DNA of 18,140 nt from an uncultured Candidatus Saccharibacteria bacterium (GTDB lineage: Bacteria; Patescibacteriota; Minisyncoccia; Phycocordibacterales; UBA918), in the NCBI GenBank assembly GCA_964350745.1, contig CAYGKU010000016.1, forward strand, positions 1-18,140, in the 5' to 3' direction. A program made the translations under genes and the position numbers. The notes under the pieces are model-generated. The model saw only the letters and a list, made by a program, of their open reading frames with translations, was not told the origin of the DNA and did no database searches. Positions 32 to 16,258 of the stretch are shown in pieces; within the stretch, counting starts at the first letter, position 1, and the number at the start of each line of letters is the position of its first letter.

Positions 32-113
32 TGCTGAGGCGGAGTTGGTATGCCACTCTCCTTATGCTTGCGCAACTAATGTAGAAGTTACATTAGTTTT
101 GTACCAGCTCCGC
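32..113 (+). repeat. Copy E of the tRNA-linked structured repeat family; its upstream part is probably cut by the window edge
   Basis: tgctgaggcggag (32-44) matches tgctaggcggag of copy A (420-431). gcggagttggta (39-50) pairs with taccagctccgc (102-113) as a 12-bp stem with one G-T. An inner 10-bp hairpin aactaatgta/tacattagtt lies at 74-98. No ORF is present. Confidence 0.5.
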
Positions 114-268: not shown

Positions 269-340
269 GCTCCCGTAGTTTAATGGATAAAATATTGGTT
301 TGCGGTACCAATGCTCCAGGTTCGATTCCTGGCGGGAGCA
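269..340 (+). tRNA. tRNA-Arg (anticodon GCG)
   Basis: A 72-nt cloverleaf folded by hand. Acceptor GCTCCCG/CGGGAGC, D arm GTTT/AAAT, anticodon stem TTGGT/ACCAA with loop TTGCGGT, T arm CCAGG-TTCGATT-CCTGG, discriminator A. No CCA is encoded. Confidence 0.9.
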
Positions 341-347
341 CAAAAGT

Positions 348-388
348 AAAATAAAACACACTGGCGACTAGCCAGTGTGTTTTATTTT
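348..388 (+). terminator. Rho-independent terminator-like hairpin after tRNA-Arg(GCG)
   Basis: aaaataaaacacactggc / gccagtgtgttttatttt is a perfect 18-bp stem around the loop gacta. The 3' arm ends in a T run. Confidence 0.75.
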
Positions 389-390
389 AG

Positions 391-530
391 AAAGCAAATA
401 GTTTTGCTTTCGGCTTTTGTGCTAGGCGGAGATATGTTTTTCTGCCCCTGCCTAGGGCAGAAAAACATTCGAGCCGGGGTCGAGAACACTTAGTAGAATT
501 TGAACGCAGTGAAAATTATACTTAGTGATT
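391..530 (+). repeat. Copy A of the tRNA-linked structured repeat family
   Basis: Ordered blocks: hairpin aaagcaaa-tagt-tttgcttt (391-410); ttcggcttttgtg; ggcggag (425-431); a 14-bp hairpin atgtttttctgccc/gggcagaaaaacat (434-468) with loop ctgccta; tcgagccggggtc (469-481); cttagtagaat (489-499); and a second acttagtgatt (520-530). The same ordered blocks recur in copies B, D, F and G. Confidence 0.75.
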
Positions 531-780
531 CGTGACCACAAATTGGTATATTACCAGAGCGTTTGTGATTGCCAGACCGGCTCCCGCCAGGCGCAGGGTT
601 TTTATGAAGCGATAGCGGAATAAAAAGCCGTAGCGCAAACCTGGTTTGAAAATTGCATGAACATACCAAAGTATGTTCATGTGCGGAGTGTGAAGGGTTT
701 TTTTGCGGTTGGGTTTGTGTAAAACGGTTGCGCAAAGCTCAGTTTGTGAGTCTTGGTCAATTTTCTGCTAAACTACTTGT

Positions 781-5552: not shown

Positions 5553-5682
5553 GTTTATTAAATTTCGTTAATAGAAGTGATCCGAGTATTTATGGGTTGT
5601 TGTGCTGTTGTGTGACGGTTTCTGAGTCAGAATATCTTGACGCAGGTTACCAAATGTTCTCACTGACTACACCAGTTGTGAG

Positions 5683-5790
5683 CACTAAGTACCTGCTATC
5701 CCAGATCGCCACATCTTGCGCTAGGAAAGGCACAAAATGTATGGCTCCGCTTCACAAACAAGCACGAAAGCAAAGCAGGTTTTGCTAGTG
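5683..5790 (-). repeat. Copy F of the structured repeat family; an orphan with no adjacent tRNA
   Basis: The minus strand reads agcaaa-acctgc-tttgct, ttcgtgcttgtttgtg, aagcggag, a hairpin with loop tttcctag, cgatctggg, then acttagtg. Block order and spacing match copies A and B. It overlaps only a 63-aa ORF (5597-5788) that has no support. Confidence 0.65.
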
Positions 5791-5950: not shown

Positions 5951-7156
5951 ATGACATATTCAAAAAAGCCAAATCCTTTTAATCCAAACGGAGTAGTATC
6001 GCCTAATCTCTTTGCAGGCAGGTCAGCTCAGGTAAACAAAATATTAAGAAAGCTAGAGTTGGCGAAAAATGGCACACCCTCAAGCTTCATTTTTGTTGGA
6101 GATCGTGGTATTGGTAAAACTGCATTGGCTAAGCTAACGCGCTTTGTGGCAACTAGTAACGATGAGGGTTTATATAACCTAAACTTTCTCTCATCATATT
6201 ATTCTGTGGCAAGAGGACAATCGACTCCAGAAGTTTTGCAAGCGTCTTTAAACGAACTCACTGAGAGGATGCCTTCAGGAGTTTTAGATAAAATGCAGAG
6301 GCATTTAGGGAAGTTGTTTTCAAATGGAAAGTTTTCAATTGGTGCCTTTGGCGCATCTGTTGAAATTGCCGGTGGTGAAACGCAGGACGACACTACAGTT
6401 CGTGACCAAGTCATATCAATACTCTCGAATGTGATAACTGCCTTGCGAGAAGAACCAGACAGTCCCAAGGATGGTGTGTTAATCGTAATTGATGAGTTGA
6501 ACAATCTTTCGGATATTCAAGAATGTGCTCAGCTGGTTAGAGGTATTGTAACTACACTAGATATAAAAGATTTAGGCTATATATCTTTCATTTTGATTGG
6601 GTATAGAGATACGGAACGAAAATTTTTTGAAGGAGATGAATCAGCAAGGCGTAACATTGATGAAGTGTCATTGAACCCTATGCCAGACGAAGAAGCGTAT
6701 CAGATTTTGTGTAAAGGTTTTGAGAGTGCGGAAGTAAAATGGGACGAGCCAGCAGCAAGGGATTCGATTAAGAGAACAGCAGGTTATCCGTACGCTGTGC
6801 AGCTTTTGGGTCATAATGCCTATGAAGCTGATACAGATGGAAACATTGATGAAGATGATTGGATAAAAGCAACTGTATCAACAGCACTTGAACTTCAGAC
6901 TAAAGAATTTTCAACGATGTATTCATTTCAAGGTAAAAAAGGCTCCCGAGAAGCAATAATTGATTGTGTAATTGATAATAATGCTTGTCTTTCTAAATCT
7001 CATATTAATAGCCTGTGTCCGAAGTTAAATGTATACAGAGAATTGCCCAAGCTTATTCAACAAGGGAGCTTAATTGAGGATGCTGACGGAAAGATTTGTA
7101 TCAGTTCCCAGTTACTTAGGTGGGCAGTCATTTTCTCAAGACCGGATAAACAATAA
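5951..7156 (+). CDS. P-loop NTPase of the ORC/Cdc6 - archaeal-ATPase (PF01637-like) / STAND style, with a helical and probable winged-helix C-terminus
   Basis: N-terminal FAGRSAQVNKILRKL (the F-x-G/D-R-x-x-E/Q-hhh-L lead-in typical of this class). Walker A GDRGIGKT (aa 50-57). Walker B VLIVIDELNNL (aa 176-186). No enzymatic effector domain was recognised. Confidence 0.6.
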   Translation: MTYSKKPNPFNPNGVVSPNLFAGRSAQVNKILRKLELAKNGTPSSFIFVGDRGIGKTALAKLTRFVATSNDEGLYNLNFLSSYYSVARGQSTPEVLQASLNELTERMPSGVLDKMQRHLGKLFSNGKFSIGAFGASVEIAGGETQDDTTVRDQVISILSNVITALREEPDSPKDGVLIVIDELNNLSDIQECAQLVRGIVTTLDIKDLGYISFILIGYRDTERKFFEGDESARRNIDEVSLNPMPDEEAYQILCKGFESAEVKWDEPAARDSIKRTAGYPYAVQLLGHNAYEADTDGNIDEDDWIKATVSTALELQTKEFSTMYSFQGKKGSREAIIDCVIDNNACLSKSHINSLCPKLNVYRELPKLIQQGSLIEDADGKICISSQLLRWAVIFSRPDKQ

Positions 7157-7181: not shown

Positions 7182-7242
7182 GTTTCTAGACTGACTGAGA
7201 TTGGTGGGGTATTAACCCCTCTCAGTAGGTCTCACTATTAGG

Positions 7243-7350
7243 TGCCCCCAGCAGGAATCCTCTACGAGCCGGGGATGTTGTTGTCTTATTAGACATCCAA
7301 CATCCCTTCGATTCCTGGCGTGAGCAAAACTATTTGCTCACTCTGGGGGC
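7243..7350 (-). repeat. Copy C: a compact variant of the repeat family built as a long foldback of tRNA 3'-end-like arms
   Basis: tgcccccagcaggaatc (7243-7259) is identical to the + strand image of the tRNA-Arg(TCT) 3' end (7558-7574). A 9/10-bp hairpin ggggatgttg...caacatccct lies at 7271-7307. ttcgattcctggcgtgagca (7307-7326) is 19/20 identical to the tRNA-Arg(GCG) 3' end (321-340). The hairpin tgagcaaa-acta-tttgctca (7321-7340) is the reverse-loop version of the A/B hairpin. The copy ends ctctgggggc (7341-7350). Confidence 0.65.
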
Positions 7351-7399
7351 ATATAGTTTAGTTTGCAGGAATCGGTCAGGAGTCAGTTATTTTTATGTT

Positions 7400-7509
7400 C
7401 ATTTCATTCACTAAAAATATACTGCTCACGACCCTGACTCGACTCTCTCTTTCTCCGCTTTGCTACGAAATTCACATGAGTCTCCGTCTTTCGATTCCTG
7501 CTGGGGGCT
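7400..7509 (-). repeat. Copy G of the structured repeat family, directly behind tRNA-Arg(TCT)
   Basis: The minus strand reads agcccccagcaggaatcga (an inverted copy of the tRNA 3' end, 7491-7508, 18/18), then agacggagac (7480-7489), tcgagtcagggtc (7430-7442) and ttagtgaat (7406-7414). These are collinear with copies D and A. Confidence 0.65.
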
Positions 7510-7520
7510 ACAAACAGCAA

Positions 7521-7548
7521 CGACCAAAATGTATACACATTTTGGTCG
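7521..7548 (-). terminator. Hairpin terminator between tRNA-Arg(TCT) and its inverted 3'-end copy
   Basis: cgaccaaaatgt/acattttggtcg is a 12-bp perfect stem with loop atac. It forms the core of a longer palindrome spanning 7491-7576. Confidence 0.6.
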
Positions 7549-7557
7549 GCTGATTTG

Positions 7558-7629
7558 TGCCCCCAGCAGGAATCGAACCCACATCAAGAGCTTAGAAGTC
7601 TCCTGTTCTATCCATTGAACTATGGGGGC
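7558..7629 (-). tRNA. tRNA-Arg (anticodon TCT)
   Basis: The reverse complement folds as a 72-nt cloverleaf. Acceptor GCCCCCA/TGGGGGC, D arm GTTC/GAAC, anticodon loop CTTCTAA, T arm GTGGG-TTCGATT-CCTGC, discriminator A. No CCA is encoded. Confidence 0.9.
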
Positions 7630-7748
7630 AATGGATCGTGTCTCACAGGATAACAAAAAAATGCCTAATAGGGAATAGTTGGCGGAATCATATAAAAAAG
7701 CAGAGGTGTGAAAAAATATTTTCACACCTCTTAAATGGTAAGTACTTT

Positions 7749-8183
7749 TCATCTTGGTTTAGGTTGTCTAAATTTGAATTTCTTAAAAGATCCATATAAA
7801 TCTATAAGCATCCTTTTAAATTTTTTGGACCACTTATTTTTCGCTCTCAAACATTCCACAATCTCATCTTCCAGCATAGGTAGTGAATAATTTTTTATAA
7901 TATCACCATCATTATCTTGGTGTGTGCGAATTTCTGTACCAACAGAGTAGCATCCGCCGATAATCCTTAGGTAGCGAAAAGTGTAATCTGTTGTGTATCC
8001 GTTGACCTCGATTGATATATGTGGATGATCGACATCGTTATCTGAGTGCAGAAGTAAAGGTGTGCCATTAATGGATTTGTCATAATCGCCAAAAACCACT
8101 TTGTGAATCCCAATTCTATTTAAGAACTCAGTAACTGCCAGTTTGCCTGAGTCTAAAATCTCATTGCTGATTTCGGTAGACAT
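7749..8183 (-). CDS. Hypothetical 144-aa protein with no recognisable family
   Basis: Intact ORF with AGGAGA 7 nt upstream of the ATG. Basic C-terminal tail KKFKRMLIDLYGSFKKFKFRQPKPR. No motif was recognised. Confidence 0.5.
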   Translation of the reverse strand: MSTEISNEILDSGKLAVTEFLNRIGIHKVVFGDYDKSINGTPLLLHSDNDVDHPHISIEVNGYTTDYTFRYLRIIGGCYSVGTEIRTHQDNDGDIIKNYSLPMLEDEIVECLRAKNKWSKKFKRMLIDLYGSFKKFKFRQPKPR

Positions 8184-8313
8184 ATTGTTCTCCTATATTT
8201 TTTAGCAAGTTTGAACTTGGCTCTAAATGAACTGATTCAACCCTACTTAATTTGTTCAAGAAAGTTGTTGCTCTTTTAAATATAGAACAAAATGGTTTTT
8301 GTGTAAATAGCAA

Positions 8314-8343
8314 TTAAAAAACAGCGCTTGATAAACAAGCGCC
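8314..8343 (-). terminator. Rho-independent terminator of the 283-aa gene
   Basis: On the minus strand, ggcgcttg-tttat-caagcgct is followed by gtttttt. It begins 2 nt after the stop at 8345, which makes the 283-aa and 144-aa genes separate transcription units. Confidence 0.7.
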
Positions 8344-8344
8344 G

Positions 8345-9196
8345 CTAATATTCATCGTCAAAACAGATGAAGTTGATCATTTCATTTGCCATTTTTACGA
8401 TCTCATCATTGTCTGACTTCTGAAGACCTTTTGTTATTTTTAAGGTTCTAAAAACCCCTCTTTTGTTTGCATTTACTCTTCTTTGGAGATTCCTTTCTTT
8501 TGGGTTTAGTCCAAAAAAATGAGCCTGCACTTCTGTGGGAACTGATGATCCTTCGTCTCCCGGAAAACCAAGCATCAGGTCTCTTCCCAAAGAACAAAAG
8601 CGTTTAAGTTTTTCAAATATCGGTGAACTTTTGAATTTTTCAAAAGAAGCCAGTCTATCCTCAAACTCTGGTCCGAACGGAACCTGGTCGATCCTTTCCG
8701 GATAGGTTGGAGGGGACAGTAGTACCAATCGGTCTATCTTGAACTTTTTGATACGCGTCTTTGCCAGTACACTGACAGCGATATGAGCTCCGTCACAAAG
8801 CCCGATCAAAGTGATGTCATCAAATACTCCAAATTCCTCGAAAAATATTTCCAGCAGATCGACCAGCTTTTCTGTCTGCAGGTCCAGAGTGTTGAGAGCT
8901 TTGTCATTTTCCGAAAACTCCTTGCCTGATGGAGTATATAAAAGACTGAACACTCCCTTTTCGACCAGTTGTTGAGACAGGCAATTGTATAGTGAACCGA
9001 TCAAAGTTCGATTTGAATTTCGATCTGCCCTTTGAGTGGTCCTGTCGATGAACACGACTAGTTTGTTTGCGTCCTTTGTTTTGGCGACAGTGTGTTGCAA
9101 AAAGTTACTTTCTATCCAAAGGTAACCGGCCCTTGAGGTGGTTGTCTTAGACCACCTTGCCTTTGTCTCCTCAAGCGGAGGTTGTTCTACTTGCAT
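8345..9196 (-). CDS. Alpha/beta-hydrolase-fold-like protein with cysteine in the nucleophile elbow (G-L-C-D-G)
   Basis: The strand/helix pattern KLVVFID ... FSLLYTPSG ... ITLIGLCDGAHIAVSVLA ... RLVLLSPP matches beta3 to beta6 of alpha/beta hydrolases. The Cys134 codon is at 8795-8797. Candidate acid and His residues lie downstream (GFPGDEGSS, QAHFFG). GGAGA sits upstream of the ATG. Confidence 0.45.
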   Translation of the reverse strand: MQVEQPPLEETKARWSKTTTSRAGYLWIESNFLQHTVAKTKDANKLVVFIDRTTQRADRNSNRTLIGSLYNCLSQQLVEKGVFSLLYTPSGKEFSENDKALNTLDLQTEKLVDLLEIFFEEFGVFDDITLIGLCDGAHIAVSVLAKTRIKKFKIDRLVLLSPPTYPERIDQVPFGPEFEDRLASFEKFKSSPIFEKLKRFCSLGRDLMLGFPGDEGSSVPTEVQAHFFGLNPKERNLQRRVNANKRGVFRTLKITKGLQKSDNDEIVKMANEMINFICFDDEY

Positions 9197-9257: not shown

Positions 9258-9433
9258 TATTTTGTTCCGCCTTCGACTTAATTTTTAATGACTGGAAGGG
9301 TGCCGTCCTGCGAATGAAAAATATAGTCGTCAACTCCTTATTTTACACTTAAAATGGAATTGCTCTTGTGGTGCAAGTCTCTGGCGACAAAATGCAAAAT
9401 TCCACCAGCAGAAGCTGGCGGAATTTCACATTG

Positions 9434-9591
9434 TGCGTGATGAGAGACTTGTCCCGCTTTTTCTAATTCACTACGTTCATAAGAACGCTGGACACGGCTC
9501 GACCGTTTCTCTCCCTAGGAAAGGGGAGAGAAACATGTCTCCGCCGTTCAAGTCTCTACGGAAAGCATGAAGATGCTTTCCTCATCGCGCA
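9434..9591 (-). repeat. Copy D of the structured repeat family, bounded by direct and inverted copies of the tRNA-Val 3' end
   Basis: The minus strand reads tgcgcgatgag, a hairpin ggaaagcatc-ttc-atgctttcc (9560-9581), agagacttgaac, ggcggagac, an 11-bp hairpin gtttctctccc/gggagagaaac (9505-9534) with a cctag-containing loop, tcgagccgtgtcc (9490-9502), gtagtgaat (9466-9474), and finally caagtctctcatcacgca (9434-9451). Confidence 0.75.
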
Positions 9592-9594
9592 CGA

Positions 9595-9632
9595 ACAAAA
9601 ATCGCCCAAGCAAAGCTTGAGCTGATTTTTGT
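9595..9632 (-). terminator. Hairpin terminator behind tRNA-Val
   Basis: acaaaaatc/gatttttgt forms an outer stem around an inner caagc/gcttg stem. It is embedded in a longer palindrome that includes ctcatcgcgca and its complement (9581-9648). Confidence 0.6.
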
Positions 9633-9637
9633 ACTCG

Positions 9638-9710
9638 TGCGCGATGAGAGACTTGAACTCCCGACCTTCTCGGTGTAAACGAGCTGCTCTACCAACTGAG
9701 CTAATCGCGC
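9638..9710 (-). tRNA. tRNA-Val (anticodon TAC)
   Basis: The reverse complement is GCGCGATTAGCTCAGTTGGTAGAGCAGCTCGTTTACACCGAGAAGGTCGGGAGTTCAAGTCTCTCATCGCGCA. The cloverleaf is canonical with anticodon loop TTTACAC. No CCA is encoded. Confidence 0.92.
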
Positions 9711-12044: not shown

Positions 12045-12674
12045 ATGAAAACAGCAGTTACAGGGGTGGCAATTTCACCCGTCAATATGAGTGAGCGCAA
12101 AGAGCTAGGTATCAGACCTGGTGATACAGTGCGTGTACACCAAAAGATCCAAGATAAGGGTAAGGTTCGTATTCAGGTTTTTGAAGGCTTGGTATTGGCC
12201 CGAAAGCACGGTGATGAGCCGGGAGCAACCTTTACCGTACGTAAGGTGGCTAGTGGAGTAGGGGTAGAGAAGATCTTCCCGTTATACTCACCACTTATCG
12301 ATAAGATCGAGATCGTGAAGCGAGCTAAGGTACGTCGAGCGAAGCTTTACTACATCCGTGAAAAAGTGGCTCGCGAGATCAAGCGTCAAATGCGTCGCAT
12401 GTCTCTAGTATCTTTTGCTACTGAATCTGAAGCGGAAGCAGCAGCAAAGGCAGCCGCAGAAGCTAAGGCGAAAGAAGAAGCTGAGGCCAAAGCCAAAGAA
12501 GAGGCTGAACTAAAAGAAAAAGAGGTAGCTGAAGCTAAGGCCAAGGAAGAGGCTGCTAAAGCCGAAGCTGAGACCGAAGTCAAAGCGGAAGAAGCTACCG
12601 AAACCGCTCCAGAGGAAGTAAAGGAAACTGAGGGAGAGAAAAAAGAAGAAAAAGCTGAAGAAAAGAAGAGCTAG
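12045..12674 (+). CDS. rplS: 50S ribosomal protein L19 with a ~90-aa Ala/Glu/Lys-rich C-terminal extension
   Basis: The L19 core is [33 protein letters not shown]...[43 protein letters not shown]. The tail is repetitive (EAKAKEEAE-like). Confidence 0.9.
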
Positions 12675-12794: not shown

Positions 12795-14285
12795 ATGTGC
12801 GGAATAGCGACTATAATAGATAAAGATAACAAATGCTCAACGCCAATTGAGTCTTTATTGCAAAAAATTTGTCATCGTGGATTGTCTCAAAATGAAATTT
12901 TAAGATTTGAAAAAGTTTCTTTGGGAACAAACAGGTTGCCTATCGTTGACGAAGAAAATGCAGTCCAACCTGTTTTTAATGAGGACGAAACTGTGTTTGT
13001 TATTCAGAATGGGGAAATATTCAATCACAATCAAATCAGGATAAGTTTGAAAGACAAAGGCTATAATTTTAAGAGTGACTCAGATACTGAAGCCTTAGTT
13101 TATTTGTGGCAAGAATACCATGAAGAAATGGTCAGATATATTGATTCAGAAATGTTTGCTTTTGTTATTTATGACAGAAAAACCGATTCCGTTTTTATTG
13201 CTAGAGATCGTCTTGGTGTAAAGCCGTTATTTTATAGTGAGACTGAAAGTTGTCTTTTGTTTGCTTCTGAGATGAAATCTTTGAGTCATTTGGACGGTGT
13301 GTCAAAAATAGAGGAGTTTCCACCTGGACATTATTACAAAAATGGAGTGTTTACAAAATACTACGATTTAAATAAACATACGGAGGGAGATGAAATAGAA
13401 GGAGACGAAAAGGTCATTTTAGATTTATTAGAAAAGTCAGTGGCCAAGAGAGTAGATACAGATCTACCGATTGCGGTATTTTTTTCCGGAGGTGTAGACA
13501 GTTCTTTGGTAATGCATTATGCCAACAAGCATCATAAAGACGTAACAGCGTTGATATTGGGTGGTGATAATTCGGAGGATAGAAAATACGCGGAAGATCT
13601 TTGTCTTAATATGGGTTGGAAGTATAAGACTCTGGATGCGGCAGTTGATTACTCTAAAAATCTTGAAAATATTATCTATTACTTGGAGAATGACAACCCA
13701 AATGTTGTAAGGCATTCATTTGCCAATGACTTGATTTCTCGATTCGCAAAAGACTTGGGGTATAAAATCGTTTTGACTGGTGAAGGAGCGGATGAATTAT
13801 TTGGTGGATATAATGAGTTTTTTGATATTCCCACATCAAAGATAAACAAGGCTTGTAGGATATTGCTACAGTCAATGTCTTTAGGTAATTTAGCTAGAGT
13901 AGATCGATTGGCGATGAAGCATACGATAGAAACTAGATGTCCGTTTTTTGATAATGATCTACTAGATTATGGTCTCTCAATCTCTGGAGATAAAAAGAAA
14001 GGGGAAGAGAATGGTGAGGTTTATACCAAGCTTATCCTACGAAAGGCTGCTACAAGAGTTTTGCCTTATAAAATAGCGTTCAGACAGAAAGTTCCTTTTG
14101 CAAATGGGGCTGGTATGGATATTGGTTATAATTATCAAATTGGGGACGGAGTGTTGTCTAAAATTGCAAAAGGTAATAACATGACCGAGCAAGAAATGTA
14201 TACTCAAATTTATAATAGCTTTAACTACAATAAATTTAAAAAAGAAGAAGTGGTTGTAAAAGATAACTTGGTAAACTCTTTATAA
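12795..14285 (+). CDS. asnB: Asparagine synthase (glutamine-hydrolysing) family protein
   Basis: The MCGI N-terminus carries the Cys2 Ntn amidotransferase nucleophile. FFSGGVDSS is the PP-loop and LTGEGADELFGGY is present. The gene is noticeably more AT-rich than its neighbours. Confidence 0.85.
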   Translation: MCGIATIIDKDNKCSTPIESLLQKICHRGLSQNEILRFEKVSLGTNRLPIVDEENAVQPVFNEDETVFVIQNGEIFNHNQIRISLKDKGYNFKSDSDTEALVYLWQEYHEEMVRYIDSEMFAFVIYDRKTDSVFIARDRLGVKPLFYSETESCLLFASEMKSLSHLDGVSKIEEFPPGHYYKNGVFTKYYDLNKHTEGDEIEGDEKVILDLLEKSVAKRVDTDLPIAVFFSGGVDSSLVMHYANKHHKDVTALILGGDNSEDRKYAEDLCLNMGWKYKTLDAAVDYSKNLENIIYYLENDNPNVVRHSFANDLISRFAKDLGYKIVLTGEGADELFGGYNEFFDIPTSKINKACRILLQSMSLGNLARVDRLAMKHTIETRCPFFDNDLLDYGLSISGDKKKGEENGEVYTKLILRKAATRVLPYKIAFRQKVPFANGAGMDIGYNYQIGDGVLSKIAKGNNMTEQEMYTQIYNSFNYNKFKKEEVVVKDNLVNSL

Positions 14286-14374
14286 TAAATAACTTCTACT
14301 TGAAGTGAAGTGTCTTTTCAGGCATAATGCAGGAACTTTATTTTCCAAAAATATAGGCATCAGTCCACAAAAAT

Positions 14375-14459
14375 GTCCAGGTGGCGAAATTGGTAGACGC
14401 GCTACCTTGAGGGGGTAGTGGGAATTATTCCCGTGCTGGTTCAACTCCAGTCCTGGACA
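14375..14459 (+). tRNA. tRNA-Leu (anticodon GAG), class II with a long variable arm
   Basis: Acceptor GTCCAGG/CCTGGAC, D region GCGAAATTGGTAGACGC, anticodon stem CTACC/GGTAG with loop TTGAGGG, variable arm TGGGAATTATTCCCGT, T arm GCTGG-TTCAACT-CCAGT, discriminator A. No CCA is encoded. Confidence 0.9.
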
Positions 14460-14500
14460 CAAAATCAAGTCGGCGTTTAGCCGACTTTTTGTGTCCAGGA
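14451..14500 (+). terminator. 50-nt near-perfect palindrome that spans the last 9 nt of tRNA-Leu and acts as a terminator-like hairpin
   Basis: tcctggacacaaaa (14451-14464) pairs with ttttgtgtccagga (14487-14500). aagtcggc pairs with gccgactt around the loop gttta. A T run is present. Confidence 0.7.
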
Positions 14501-14603
14501 AGCAAGCAAATAGTTTTGCTTTCGTGCCTTTGTGTCGGGCGTAGCTATAATTTTGCTCCTTATCTAGAGCAAAATTAGGCGAGCCGGAGGAGCAAGTCGG
14601 CAT
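14491..14603 (+). repeat. Copy B of the structured repeat family
   Basis: gtgtccagga is an inverted copy of the tRNA-Leu 3' end. It is followed by aagcaaa-tagt-tttgctt (14504-14521), whose 16-nt core is identical to copy A. Then come ttcgtgcctttgtg, gggcgtag (14537-14544), an 11-bp hairpin taattttgctc/gagcaaaatta (14548-14577) and gcgagccggagga (14579-14591). The copy ends in caagtcggc (14593-14601), a direct repeat of 14466-14474. Confidence 0.75.
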
Positions 14604-15754: not shown

Positions 15755-16174
15755 ATGTCACTAATAAAATGGGAACCTTTTGATGAGCTTGATCGTGTTT
15801 TTCGCGACCTTAATCCAACGTTATCAGCTCGCGGTACACAGGTCGGTTTTGATATGGCGGTTGATGTTTATGAGGATGGAAACGATCTGGTAGCAGAAAT
15901 GAATGTGCCGGGATTGAAAGCTGATGATATTGATGTAGAGGTCGAGGATAGTTACTTGAGGATCTCCGGGCGACGAGAAGAAGTGCAAGAGAAGAAAGAA
16001 AAAAATCACTACGCCAAGGAGATCAAGCGCGGATCGTTTGAGCGAGTGGTGGCTCTGCCTGATATGGTAGAACAAGACAAGGTAACGGCCGAGTATGATA
16101 ACGGAGTCTTAAAGGTAACTATGCCAAAACGCGAAAGAACTCCTGATAAGAAAGTGAAGGTGCAGGTGAAGTAG
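15755..16174 (+). CDS. Hsp20/alpha-crystallin family small heat-shock protein
   Basis: The alpha-crystallin domain pattern is DVYEDGNDLVAEMNVPGLKADDIDVEVEDSYLRISGRR...FERVVALP...A.YDNGVLKVTMPK. Confidence 0.9.
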   Translation: MSLIKWEPFDELDRVFRDLNPTLSARGTQVGFDMAVDVYEDGNDLVAEMNVPGLKADDIDVEVEDSYLRISGRREEVQEKKEKNHYAKEIKRGSFERVVALPDMVEQDKVTAEYDNGVLKVTMPKRERTPDKKVKVQVK

Positions 16175-16205: not shown

Positions 16206-16258
16206 AACAAAACACCCGCCCCGCCGGCGTAGCCGGCGGGGCGGGTGTTTTGTATTTT
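16206..16258. terminator. GC-rich bidirectional terminator between the convergent hsp20 and NUDIX genes
   Basis: caaaacacccgccccgccggc-gta-gccggcggggcgggtgttttg is a 21-bp perfect stem flanked by A and T runs on both sides. Confidence 0.85.

Follow-up and report, generated by a model that had tools for sequence, protein, structure and literature searches.

What are the hairpin-rich sequences that recur behind the tRNA genes of an uncultured Candidatus Saccharibacteria bacterium? The DNA analysed here, which we call the window, comprises 18,140 nucleotides (nt) of contig CAYGKU010000016.1 (GenBank assembly GCA_964350745.1). An original prediction made from its letters had described seven loci, A to G, as copies of one multi-hairpin module, lying in DNA free of open reading frames (ORFs) and mostly just behind tRNA genes. 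Our analysis demonstrates that these modules are real and that they belong to a phylum-wide, strongly structured family. The family is apparently undescribed, as a full-text literature search returned no description of such elements in Patescibacteria. Each unit is ORF-less, extends over ~150-210 nt from the 3' end of a tRNA gene that lacks CCA (A73-CAAA), and lies on the tRNA's strand.

The window copies were recognised by two models. A profile hidden Markov model (HMM), trained on 11 copies from other genomes and only A from the window, matched A at 385-541 (E = 1e-37), F at 5786-5637 on the minus strand (E = 3e-19), B at 14501-14599 (E = 1e-17, covering profile positions 5-102 only), D at 9567-9461 on the minus strand (E = 5e-10) and G at 7490-7373 on the minus strand (E = 2e-5). 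A covariance model, run with its filters off and with A and F but not B, D, G or C in its training set, scored these copies at 149.7 (A), 81.7 (F), 63.1 (B), 61.6 (D) and 34.4 bits (G, E = 1e-7), and also detected C at 7237-7345 on the minus strand (22.9 bits, E = 1e-4). Sensitive blastn between intergenic parts of the window gave three real similarities: A 389-477 with B 14501-14587 (75% over 91 nt), F 5691-5774 with the reverse of B, and A 425-513 with the reverse of D. In addition, the pattern GCAAA-N4-6-TTTGCTTTCG-N3-8-TTTGTG, which joins the first two predicted blocks, matches the window three times (A, B and F), compared with 0.00 matches expected from 200 shuffles.

On the evidence of the two models, the proposal of a single family holds for A, B, D, F and G and weakly for C, but fails for E (32-113, plus strand). 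This locus has a GGCGGAG motif and a long-range stem, gave no HMM or covariance-model match at E <= 10 and no blastn similarity to any copy elsewhere, and is not a supported member; it is at most a decayed fragment of the family. The predicted placement behind tRNAs was borne out, with a unit following all four tRNA genes of the window on the tRNA's own strand, as was the description of block 4 as a hairpin with differing stems and a constant loop, which covaries. Other details had to be revised. Unit A runs from 337 to 542 rather than from 391 to 530, starting inside the tRNA 3' end and including the 'terminator' hairpin, while the sixth block, given as TTAGTGAAT, conflated the 3' strand of the last hairpin of A (CTTAGTGATTCG) with an apical loop of D and G (GAACGTAGTGAA). 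The statement that the copies are ORF-free is correct insofar as the mechanical ORFs there look spurious, but such ORFs do exist and overlap tRNA genes or units (168-359, 490-735, 5597-5788, 7426-7752 and 14280-14603).

Unit A is a complete example of the layout that we term type L (337-542, plus strand; HMM and covariance model). It follows tRNA-Arg(gcg) (269-341, plus strand; ARAGORN, Rfam tRNA 64.7 bits), which has no encoded CCA and whose last bases, AGCA, together with the trailer CAAAAG form the 5' strand of a stem, P1 (337-346). In type L units generally, the last 2-4 tRNA bases and CAAAnnn pair in P1 with a downstream nnnTTTGTG (414-423 in A). P1 encloses two hairpins: T1, an A-rich/GC/T-rich hairpin of free sequence that is terminator-like (347-389), and B1 (390-411), whose sequence GAAAGCAAA-CTGC-TTTGCTTTC is almost invariant across classes, with compensatory replacement in one divergent subfamily. 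Beyond P1 lies P3 (GGC/GCC), with a constant internal loop GGA/GA, topped by the hypervariable hairpin B4 with its loop YTTCCTAG (P3 to B4, 425-475). The long last hairpin, P5 (478-537), has the tip GA-RY-GNA-RY-GAA, and its basal helix is followed by A-CAAA (538-542), the format of the tRNA's own end; by eye, ~14 of 23 aligned units end in a helix followed by ACA(A/G/T)A. The minimum free energy (MFE) fold of unit A shows the P1/T1/B1 three-way junction, P3/B4 and P5. The repeat in type L is only 6 nt long, CACAAA, and the long inverted copy of the tRNA end described below is absent.

Two further window units are of type L and, like A, are closed by P1 pairing of only the last 2-4 tRNA bases and the trailer. 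Unit F (5631-5789, minus strand; HMM, covariance model and alignment with L023/L024/L027) has no tRNA in front of it, and its subfamily is the one found behind tRNA-Gly(tcc) in other genomes. It comprises B1 (5765-5787), the TTTGTG strand (5753-5764), P3/B4 (5703-5751) and P5 (5639-5701). Unit B (14451-14600, plus strand; HMM and covariance model) is headed by tRNA-Leu(gag) (14375-14460, plus strand; ARAGORN, Rfam) and is cut short after block 5, without P5, unlike the complete tRNA-Leu(gag) unit of related locus L042. Its parts are a T1 palindrome that includes the tRNA acceptor 3' strand (14451-14500), B1 (14503-14524), a second TTTGTG strand (14527-14536) and P3/B4 (14538-14585).

The second layout, type S, was seen in window units D and C and in L013, L019, L022, L023 and L049. 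Here T1 is followed by an inverted copy of the acceptor 3' strand, a B1-like hairpin, an inverted T-arm (GGAATCGAA), a P5-like hairpin and finally a direct copy of the tRNA from T-loop to C74; inverted and direct copies together form a closing helix. Unit D (9433-9637, minus strand; HMM, covariance model, direct and inverted copies), headed by tRNA-Val(tac) (9637-9710, minus strand; ARAGORN, Rfam), is a hybrid containing T1 (9595-9632), anti-acceptor (9581-9594), B1-like hairpin (9560-9581), anti-T-arm (9546-9557), P3/B4 (9496-9545), P5 with loop GAACGTAGTGAA (9450-9495) and the direct repeat of the tRNA-Val 3' end (9433-9451). This direct copy lies at +186 to +204, and the MFE fold closes the unit by a helix between it and its inverted copy.

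Units G and C form a tandem array headed by tRNA-Arg(tct) (7557-7629, minus strand; ARAGORN, Rfam). G (7365-7557, minus strand) was identified by HMM, covariance model and an 88-nt palindrome (7490-7577), and contains T1 (7511-7557), an uninterrupted 20-nt inverted copy of the tRNA 3' end (7490-7509), a P3-like element (7436-7488), P5 (7374-7433) and a partial direct repeat, GATTCCTGC (7365-7373). C (7242-7351, minus strand; covariance model, direct and inverted copies) is a short unit and a chimera of two tRNA-Arg specificities: its anti-acceptor (7341-7351) and its terminal direct repeat (7242-7259) correspond to tRNA-Arg(tct), and between them lie a B1-like hairpin (7321-7340), an inverted copy of a tRNA-Arg(gcg)-like T-arm/acceptor (7307-7320) and a variable hairpin (7272-7306).

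Some variation was seen among the related loci. In L046 (1120-1180) a type L unit directly follows tRNA-Arg(tct) without T1, so that P1 encloses B1 alone, and T1 is therefore dispensable for the unit. L018 (5788-5839) and L048 (6791-6842) carry a 56-nt insertion between P3 and P5 of a type L unit that is missing from the otherwise ~93% identical unit of L029, showing that the P3-P5 junction tolerates insertions and deletions.

Is the fold itself real, and which strand carries it? Covariation tests on a structure-blind MAFFT alignment of 23 units showed pairing in 91.6% of alignment cells, compared with 75.8% after shuffling and 37-47% when the partners were slid. The covariation score was 0.481, a value reached by none of 500 shuffled alignments (0.187), and stayed at or below 0.115 with partners slid; both sides change in 24 of 31 pairs. 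P1 covaries too, with duplexes between trailer and cognate complement averaging -17.7 kcal/mol as opposed to -11.3 kcal/mol for non-cognate combinations (p = 8e-11). The tRNA-sense strand folds better in all 22 distinct full units (-51.5 versus -43.7 kcal/mol) and holds 69 G.U pairs versus 18 on the antisense strand (p = 4e-5), and for P1 the sense strand is the better one in 18 of the 23 units. Given this sense-strand stability and G.U excess, the fold belongs to one strand, that of tRNA polarity. The fold-bearing strand is RNA or, less simply, sense-strand single-stranded DNA (ssDNA).

The family extends well beyond the window. Scanning one genome per species with a short B1-based pattern gave 26 matching places, 12 of them in metagenome-assembled genomes of Patescibacteria (Saccharibacteria, Paceibacteria, Parcubacteria, Kaiserbacteria and Minisyncoccia). 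In all 12, a tRNA gene or a tRNA 3'-end copy is directly followed by the whole module; the 14 matches outside Patescibacteria consist of the pattern alone, with no adjoining tRNA gene and no further module block. The same pattern retrieved 24 more loci from metagenomes. The earlier description of the module as lineage-specific was too narrow, as the family covers Saccharibacteria, Paceibacteria, Kaiserbacteria, Minisyncoccia and others. Viral contigs, phages and plasmids gave no matches (IMG/VR searched by pattern, INPHARED and PLSDB by blastn), and a phage or plasmid origin was rejected on this basis.

These copies lie almost always behind a tRNA gene. Among the listed HMM matches, 40 of 52 lie at most 400 nt behind a tRNA on the same strand (a few of these matches being one sequence on opposite strands), and the first unit begins 41-49 nt from the tRNA end. 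Units accompany tRNAs for Glu, Arg (four anticodons), Gly, Tyr, Leu, Val, Pro, Ser and Phe, and unit subfamilies follow tRNA identity across genomes. We compared 42 distinct tRNA genes, comprising the four of the window (at 341-346, 7551-7556, 9631-9636 and 14460-14465) and 38 from related loci. None encodes CCA, nor does any unit carry a tRNA-type CCA end; C74 is present in 41, CA in 38 and CAAA in 24. Reading the flanks by eye, we found an A-rich/GC/T-rich hairpin within ~10 nt behind all 42, its stem often lengthened by a complement of the tRNA acceptor 3' strand.

How do the units come to be repeated? Arrays take the form tRNA-[3' end-T1-anti-body]n-direct repeat. Behind 12 tRNAs, the final 18-22 nt of the tRNA recur as direct copies, several of them perfect, 140-700 nt downstream with at least one unit in between. 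These copies begin at G53/T54; those in the window are the direct repeats of C (7242-7259, Arg-tct) and D (9433-9451, Val). Every displaced copy in turn has a T1 and an inverted copy of its own behind it. Behind the direct repeat of D, for example, lies a remnant of an older unit that the original prediction had not listed (9371-9427, minus strand; recognised by an internal palindrome and by similarity to 9391-9451). This remnant has a separate T1-like hairpin (9397-9427) and, at 9371-9382, the degenerate anti-T segment AGAGACTTGCAC. Tandem arrays of up to three units occur in L019, L040, L045 and window G + C, and neighbouring units of one array can come from different subfamilies (L019).

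One comparison captures a locus with and without a unit. L040 and L041 read tRNA-Glu(ctc)-T1-L-L, while in L049, L037 and L028 the identical tRNA-Glu(ctc) is joined, at the T-loop, by an additional type S unit of ~165 bp, and 22 bp (GTTCGATTCTCCGTGGGATCAC) are duplicated; by eye, the downstream flanks of the two groups match at ~98%. L029 and L018 form a second, less clean pair. At least one unit was therefore gained as a discrete insertion at a tRNA T-loop. A Pfam census of 149 non-redundant neighbouring ORFs showed no enriched family, so the unit does not serve as the leader of one gene family. The 25 commonest families of this census (those with at least 2 ORFs) included no recombinase or integrase, and the only mobile-element family listed was an IS110-type transposase. 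A recombinase of the units' own was rejected accordingly.

No known RNA family accounts for the units, but a known analogue of similar layout exists. A cmscan of the whole window against Rfam 15 at E <= 1 returned only the four tRNAs and chance-level matches, so that T-box, 6S, tmRNA, RNase P, SRP, ribozyme and group I/II intron families are not matched either. Four related loci likewise yielded nothing but tRNAs at this threshold. The earlier statement that no known family matched is thus right as to Rfam membership, yet it overlooked the enterobacterial RtT repeats linked to the tyrT tRNA genes. In the tyrT locus of Escherichia coli MG1655 (L071, NC_000913.3 1286200-1287900) there are four matches to RtT (RF00391) of 133-138 bits. 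Downstream of tyrV lie three direct 19-nt copies of the tRNA-Tyr 3' end, AATCCTTCCCCCACCACCA, 178 bp apart and each preceded by an inverted copy, GGGGAAGGAT, and the Rfam consensus structure of RtT consists of a closing helix of inverted and direct copies, then a tRNA tail. Like the units described here, RtT repeats are ORF-less, ~130-180 nt long, arranged in tandem behind or between tRNA genes and on the tRNA strand. Window D and C and the type S units share their inverted/direct-copy closing-helix layout, and in both systems the unit ends like a tRNA.

The differences are also considerable. The closing helix is absent from type L (A, F and B), which has a fold of its own (the P1/T1/B1 junction, the P3 internal loop and P5) and the 6-nt repeat CACAAA; the Patescibacteria units end in A-CAAA whereas RtT ends in CCA; and the Patescibacteria family spans a phylum-level radiation and many tRNA species. 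The RtT model (gathering threshold 45 bits) gave no match at E <= 1 in the window or in L019, L022, L013 or L023, and our covariance model scored at most 4.5 bits on E. coli RtT, on the shared motif GAGCGAAGCGA only. Homology was rejected because neither model detects the other family and this 11-nt motif is all that they have in common. The motif contains a GCGAAGC mini-hairpin with a GNA triloop and precedes the direct copy of the tRNA end, by between a few and a few tens of bases, in E. coli RtT and in L023, L049, L052 and L057. It may be a shared functional motif, though it is below significance as evidence of homology.

We propose, with moderate confidence, that the units are RtT-like tRNA-trailer RNA elements that spread by recombination at duplicated tRNA ends. 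This proposal is based on their co-orientation and contiguity with tRNAs, the covarying, G.U-tolerant fold of the sense strand, the conserved loops, the E. coli precedent and the unit of L046, where no T1 stands between tRNA and unit and co-transcription would be unobstructed. The units would be read through from the tRNA promoter, with P1 and the closing helices presenting tRNA-like or double-stranded ends to nucleases of tRNA maturation or nucleases acting on double-stranded RNA. Cleavage could then yield stable, structured trailer RNAs of ~150-210 nt, defined tRNA 3' ends, or both. The rtT RNA is reportedly processed out of the tyrT transcript. Small RNAs can also be processed from dicistronic tRNA-small-RNA genes by RNase Z or RNase P. 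Plant tRNA-snoRNA genes and MALAT1-mascRNA similarly fuse a small structured RNA to a tRNA or tRNA-like element and have ends set by tRNA-end nucleases, although they are eukaryotic and unrelated in sequence, and processing of our units by such enzymes is suggested by analogy. Arrays may grow, shrink and swap units through recombination between tRNA 3'-end repeats (T54 to C74) or between CACAAA repeats, which would need no dedicated recombinase and could allow units to move between strains with the same tRNA.

Parts of two of the three natures first suggested for the module are supported by these data. A small RNA co-transcribed with tRNAs is favoured by the covarying, strand-specific fold that is co-oriented and contiguous with the tRNA, and a MITE-like (miniature inverted-repeat transposable element) or mini-integrative element by unit-wise insertion at the T-loop with duplication of the tRNA 3' end; the third suggestion was a recombination or termination structure. 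Three points on which the original prediction had staked itself came out in its favour, namely the lack of an Rfam match, the many further copies and the covariation.

Several observations weigh against the trailer-RNA proposal. We infer, rather than observe, transcription of the unit body. T1 is terminator-like on the tRNA strand in B, D and G (in A on the opposite strand) and no promoter-like site was found inside the units, so an RNA function requires read-through; an internal promoter was rejected as a candidate on the same evidence. The G.U excess and strand bias would also be expected of a hairpin formed in sense-strand ssDNA. Blocks that are invariant across classes, such as B1, imply a conserved partner acting in trans. 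The start of the direct repeats at exactly G53/T54 in different tRNAs resembles a defined crossover point more than general homologous recombination. The likeness to RtT is one of layout, and the loci were gathered with a B1-based pattern, so that the frequencies given here are biased.

Some of these points are better explained by the main alternative, which we consider possible but unlikely and in which the units are miniature non-autonomous mobile DNA elements, site-specific for the T-loop/3' terminus of tRNAs, that bring a replacement tRNA 3' end. A hairpin of tRNA 3' end, T1 and inverted copy in ssDNA would imitate a double-stranded target, a recombinase would be supplied in trans and arrays would represent serial insertions. 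Integron attC sites and the attP of CTX phage are used in this manner by tyrosine recombinases. Such a model accounts better than the trailer proposal for the fixed G53/T54 boundary and the perfect inverted copies. It fits the discrete insertion with its 22-bp duplication from G53/T54, the single start point of the direct repeat in many tRNAs, the T1 and inverted copy that accompany every direct repeat, down to the oldest remnant (9371-9427), the mixed subfamilies of neighbours in L019 and the chimeric nature of C. It also fits window D, where the inverted copy is perfect with respect to the functional tRNA copy and imperfect with respect to the displaced one. GNA triloop mini-hairpins of the type found at the tip of P5 are very stable in DNA, which likewise counts in its favour.

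The resemblance to integron attC and the folded attP of CTX phage includes a kept structure with free stem sequence, a strand-specific fold, arrays beside a fixed platform and a hairpin that could imitate a double-stranded target. However, the units lack R/L boxes (the start of their repeat, GTTCGAW, departs from GTTRRRY by its C at position 4) and gene cargo, the platform is a tRNA gene, and the neighbour census shows no association with IntI or Xer genes among its most frequent families. Nor do the units resemble MITEs, as they are not bounded by terminal inverted repeats, their inverted copy lies internally and corresponds to the target tRNA, and the duplications are 6 or ~20 nt long. The absence of a recombinase or integrase from the listed census families and of copies from phage, plasmid and viral-contig collections argues against mobile DNA, as does canonical type L, which is without a long inverted copy. 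There is no evident source of a ~165-nt ssDNA circle, and conservation across classes together with the tracking of subfamilies with tRNAs looks like long vertical co-inheritance rather than recent spread.

A related and slightly more doubtful idea is that these are gene-less miniature mobile elements of a new kind, whose hairpin of tRNA 3' end, T1 and inverted copy, once folded in single-stranded nucleic acid, imitates or guides to the 3' end of one tRNA gene, and that they insert themselves there and rebuild that tRNA. If this were true, the tRNA genes of Patescibacteria would be integron-like platforms with ordered arrays of structured cassettes, and the enterobacterial RtT repeats would be a relative of the same process.

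Could the units instead be cis-acting 3' flanks of tRNA genes? We consider it improbable that they serve termination and 3'-end processing with no product of their own, their conserved blocks being recognition sites for a nuclease or terminator factor and their duplication the result of slippage or unequal crossing-over. The hairpin found within ~10 nt behind all 42 distinct tRNA genes, with its stem often reaching into the acceptor 3' strand, would suit such a role, as would the terminator-like score of T1 and the inclusion of the discriminator and C74 in P1. Yet only T1, ~40 of ~200 nt, has the GC-rich hairpin and T-run of a Rho-independent terminator, leaving unexplained the ~120 nt of covarying structure beyond the stem (P3/B4 and P5), the arrays of up to three units and the tRNA-less orphan F. 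Moreover, sequence 3' of a terminator U-tract is not part of the terminated RNA, so its conservation needs read-through in any case.

It is very improbable that the units are decaying attL/attR scars of larger tRNA-targeting islands or prophages that have lost their interior and have no present function. In favour of this reading, a directly repeated tRNA 3' end is what insertion by an integrase classically leaves, and the window has variable genes between its arrays (5951-7156 and 7749-9196). At the att sites of tRNA-targeting integrative elements and of their cis-mobilizable deletion derivatives (CIMEs), too, the tRNA 3' end is restored and the displaced copy stays as a direct repeat from the T-loop. 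Unlike those elements, our inserts measure 140-400 bp, have no integrase and no ORF, and carry an inverted target copy and a covarying fold conserved across classes. Compensatory evolution, near-invariant blocks and constant layout and spacing are not features of decaying DNA, no intermediate-sized, integrase-bearing version was seen in 60 loci, and every tRNA examined has such a flank (at least hairpin and inverted copy) even though these genomes are streamlined.

The last alternative, which is barely tenable, is that the modules are the non-coding ends (the bridge RNA or seekRNA gene) of IS110/IS1111 insertion sequences (ISs), the copies without an ORF having arisen from these by deletion. 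It was prompted by L049, in which the halves of a type S unit are separated by an IS110-family transposase (PF01548 and PF02371). This is a DEDD enzyme of 345-346 aa from an IS1111-like member of the IS110 family (L049 11115-12423), with at least 167 homologues (E <= 1e-10), mostly on ~1.3-kb contigs. Nine independent IS insertions were compared (L049, L052-L060). The IS measures ~1.45 kb, is bounded by the constant termini CCACCATAGAACCC ... GGGGTTCTATAGACG and has subterminal inverted repeats (ATAGAACCC/GGGTTCTAT) as well as a 3' non-coding region of ~300 nt. Every insertion is at GGAWTCG^AA, the inverted copy of the T-loop within a pre-existing unit, and removal of the IS restores an intact unit. 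Because it has its own constant ends and leaves an intact unit behind, the IS targets the units and is not their carrier; tblastn found no IS110-type transposase in the window. A bridge-RNA origin is ruled out for the copies examined, in which the module is the interrupted target and not a part of the IS.

The targeting of units by this IS is in keeping with the habits of the group, as other IS1111 members use repetitive extragenic palindromic (REP) or attC sites. The 3' non-coding region of the IS holds GGTTCGATT, which is complementary to the target, as would be expected of a seekRNA/bridge RNA guide. The units thereby explain the landing site of a large IS1111-like family in these bacteria. 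On a 1707-bp contig (L057), the left flank of the IS comes from a tRNA-Ala unit and the right flank ends in a tRNA-Tyr-like 3'-end copy, which reflects either recombination of units mediated by the IS or a chimeric assembly joined across the repeated IS.

Six other candidates were dropped on inspection of the sequence and the Rfam results: group I/II intron fragments (the units are too small and lack a core), retron msr/msd (reverse transcriptase absent), T-box elements (neither specifier nor antiterminator), a split or permuted tRNA (even without the unit the tRNA is intact), a DNA uptake sequence (units are confined to tRNA flanks) and a tRNA remnant with an internal deletion (the inverted copy complements the T-loop too and is therefore a true inverted repeat).

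The window holds some further features. Behind unit A lies a degenerate partial unit, also absent from the original prediction (559-636, plus strand), with TTTGTG, a P5-like hairpin with loop GAAGCGATAGCGGAA and, at 580-591, GCTCCCGCCAGG, in which the acceptor 3' strand of tRNA-Arg(gcg) is copied in inverted form. It resembles a tRNA spacer in L019 (6107-6144; 87% identity over 38 nt) and is a weak member, scoring no more than 6 bits with the covariance model (E = 2.2). Three genes are situated between the tRNA arrays or next to them, a STAND/AAA_16-type ATPase gene (5951-7156, plus strand) and two ORFs without a Pfam match (7749-8183 and 8345-9196, both on the minus strand). Since tRNA-Val and tRNA-Arg(tct) are ~650 bp apart in L019 and ~2 kb apart in the window, a small variable island seems to be present here. 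A GC-rich perfect palindrome with 22-nt arms and a 3-nt spacer (16207-16253), downstream of an Hsp20-like gene (15755-16174), forms a strong bidirectional terminator-like hairpin with only chance-level Rfam matches (ohsC, MIR2670). Lastly, 24-nt periodic repeats (12429-12600) in the gene for ribosomal protein L19 encode a long K/E/A-rich C-terminal extension, and the L19 protein of the window has an identical counterpart in assembly GCA_030427665.1.

Although the genomes of Patescibacteria are tiny and streamlined, units occupy ~8% of this 18-kb window, and at least the flank of hairpin and inverted copy accompanies every tRNA gene examined in 40-odd loci. In practical terms, the units break assemblies and give spurious ORF calls beside tRNA genes. 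The family also provides the 45-year-old and still unexplained tyrT/RtT repeats of E. coli with a distant counterpart of far greater sequence diversity, enabling covariation analysis, processing assays and studies of insertion polymorphism. A covarying fold of ~200 nt shared from Saccharibacteria to Paceibacteria would be among the very few phylum-wide non-coding elements of this radiation, and it is linked to the biology of tRNA 3' ends in organisms that do not encode CCA in their tRNA genes.

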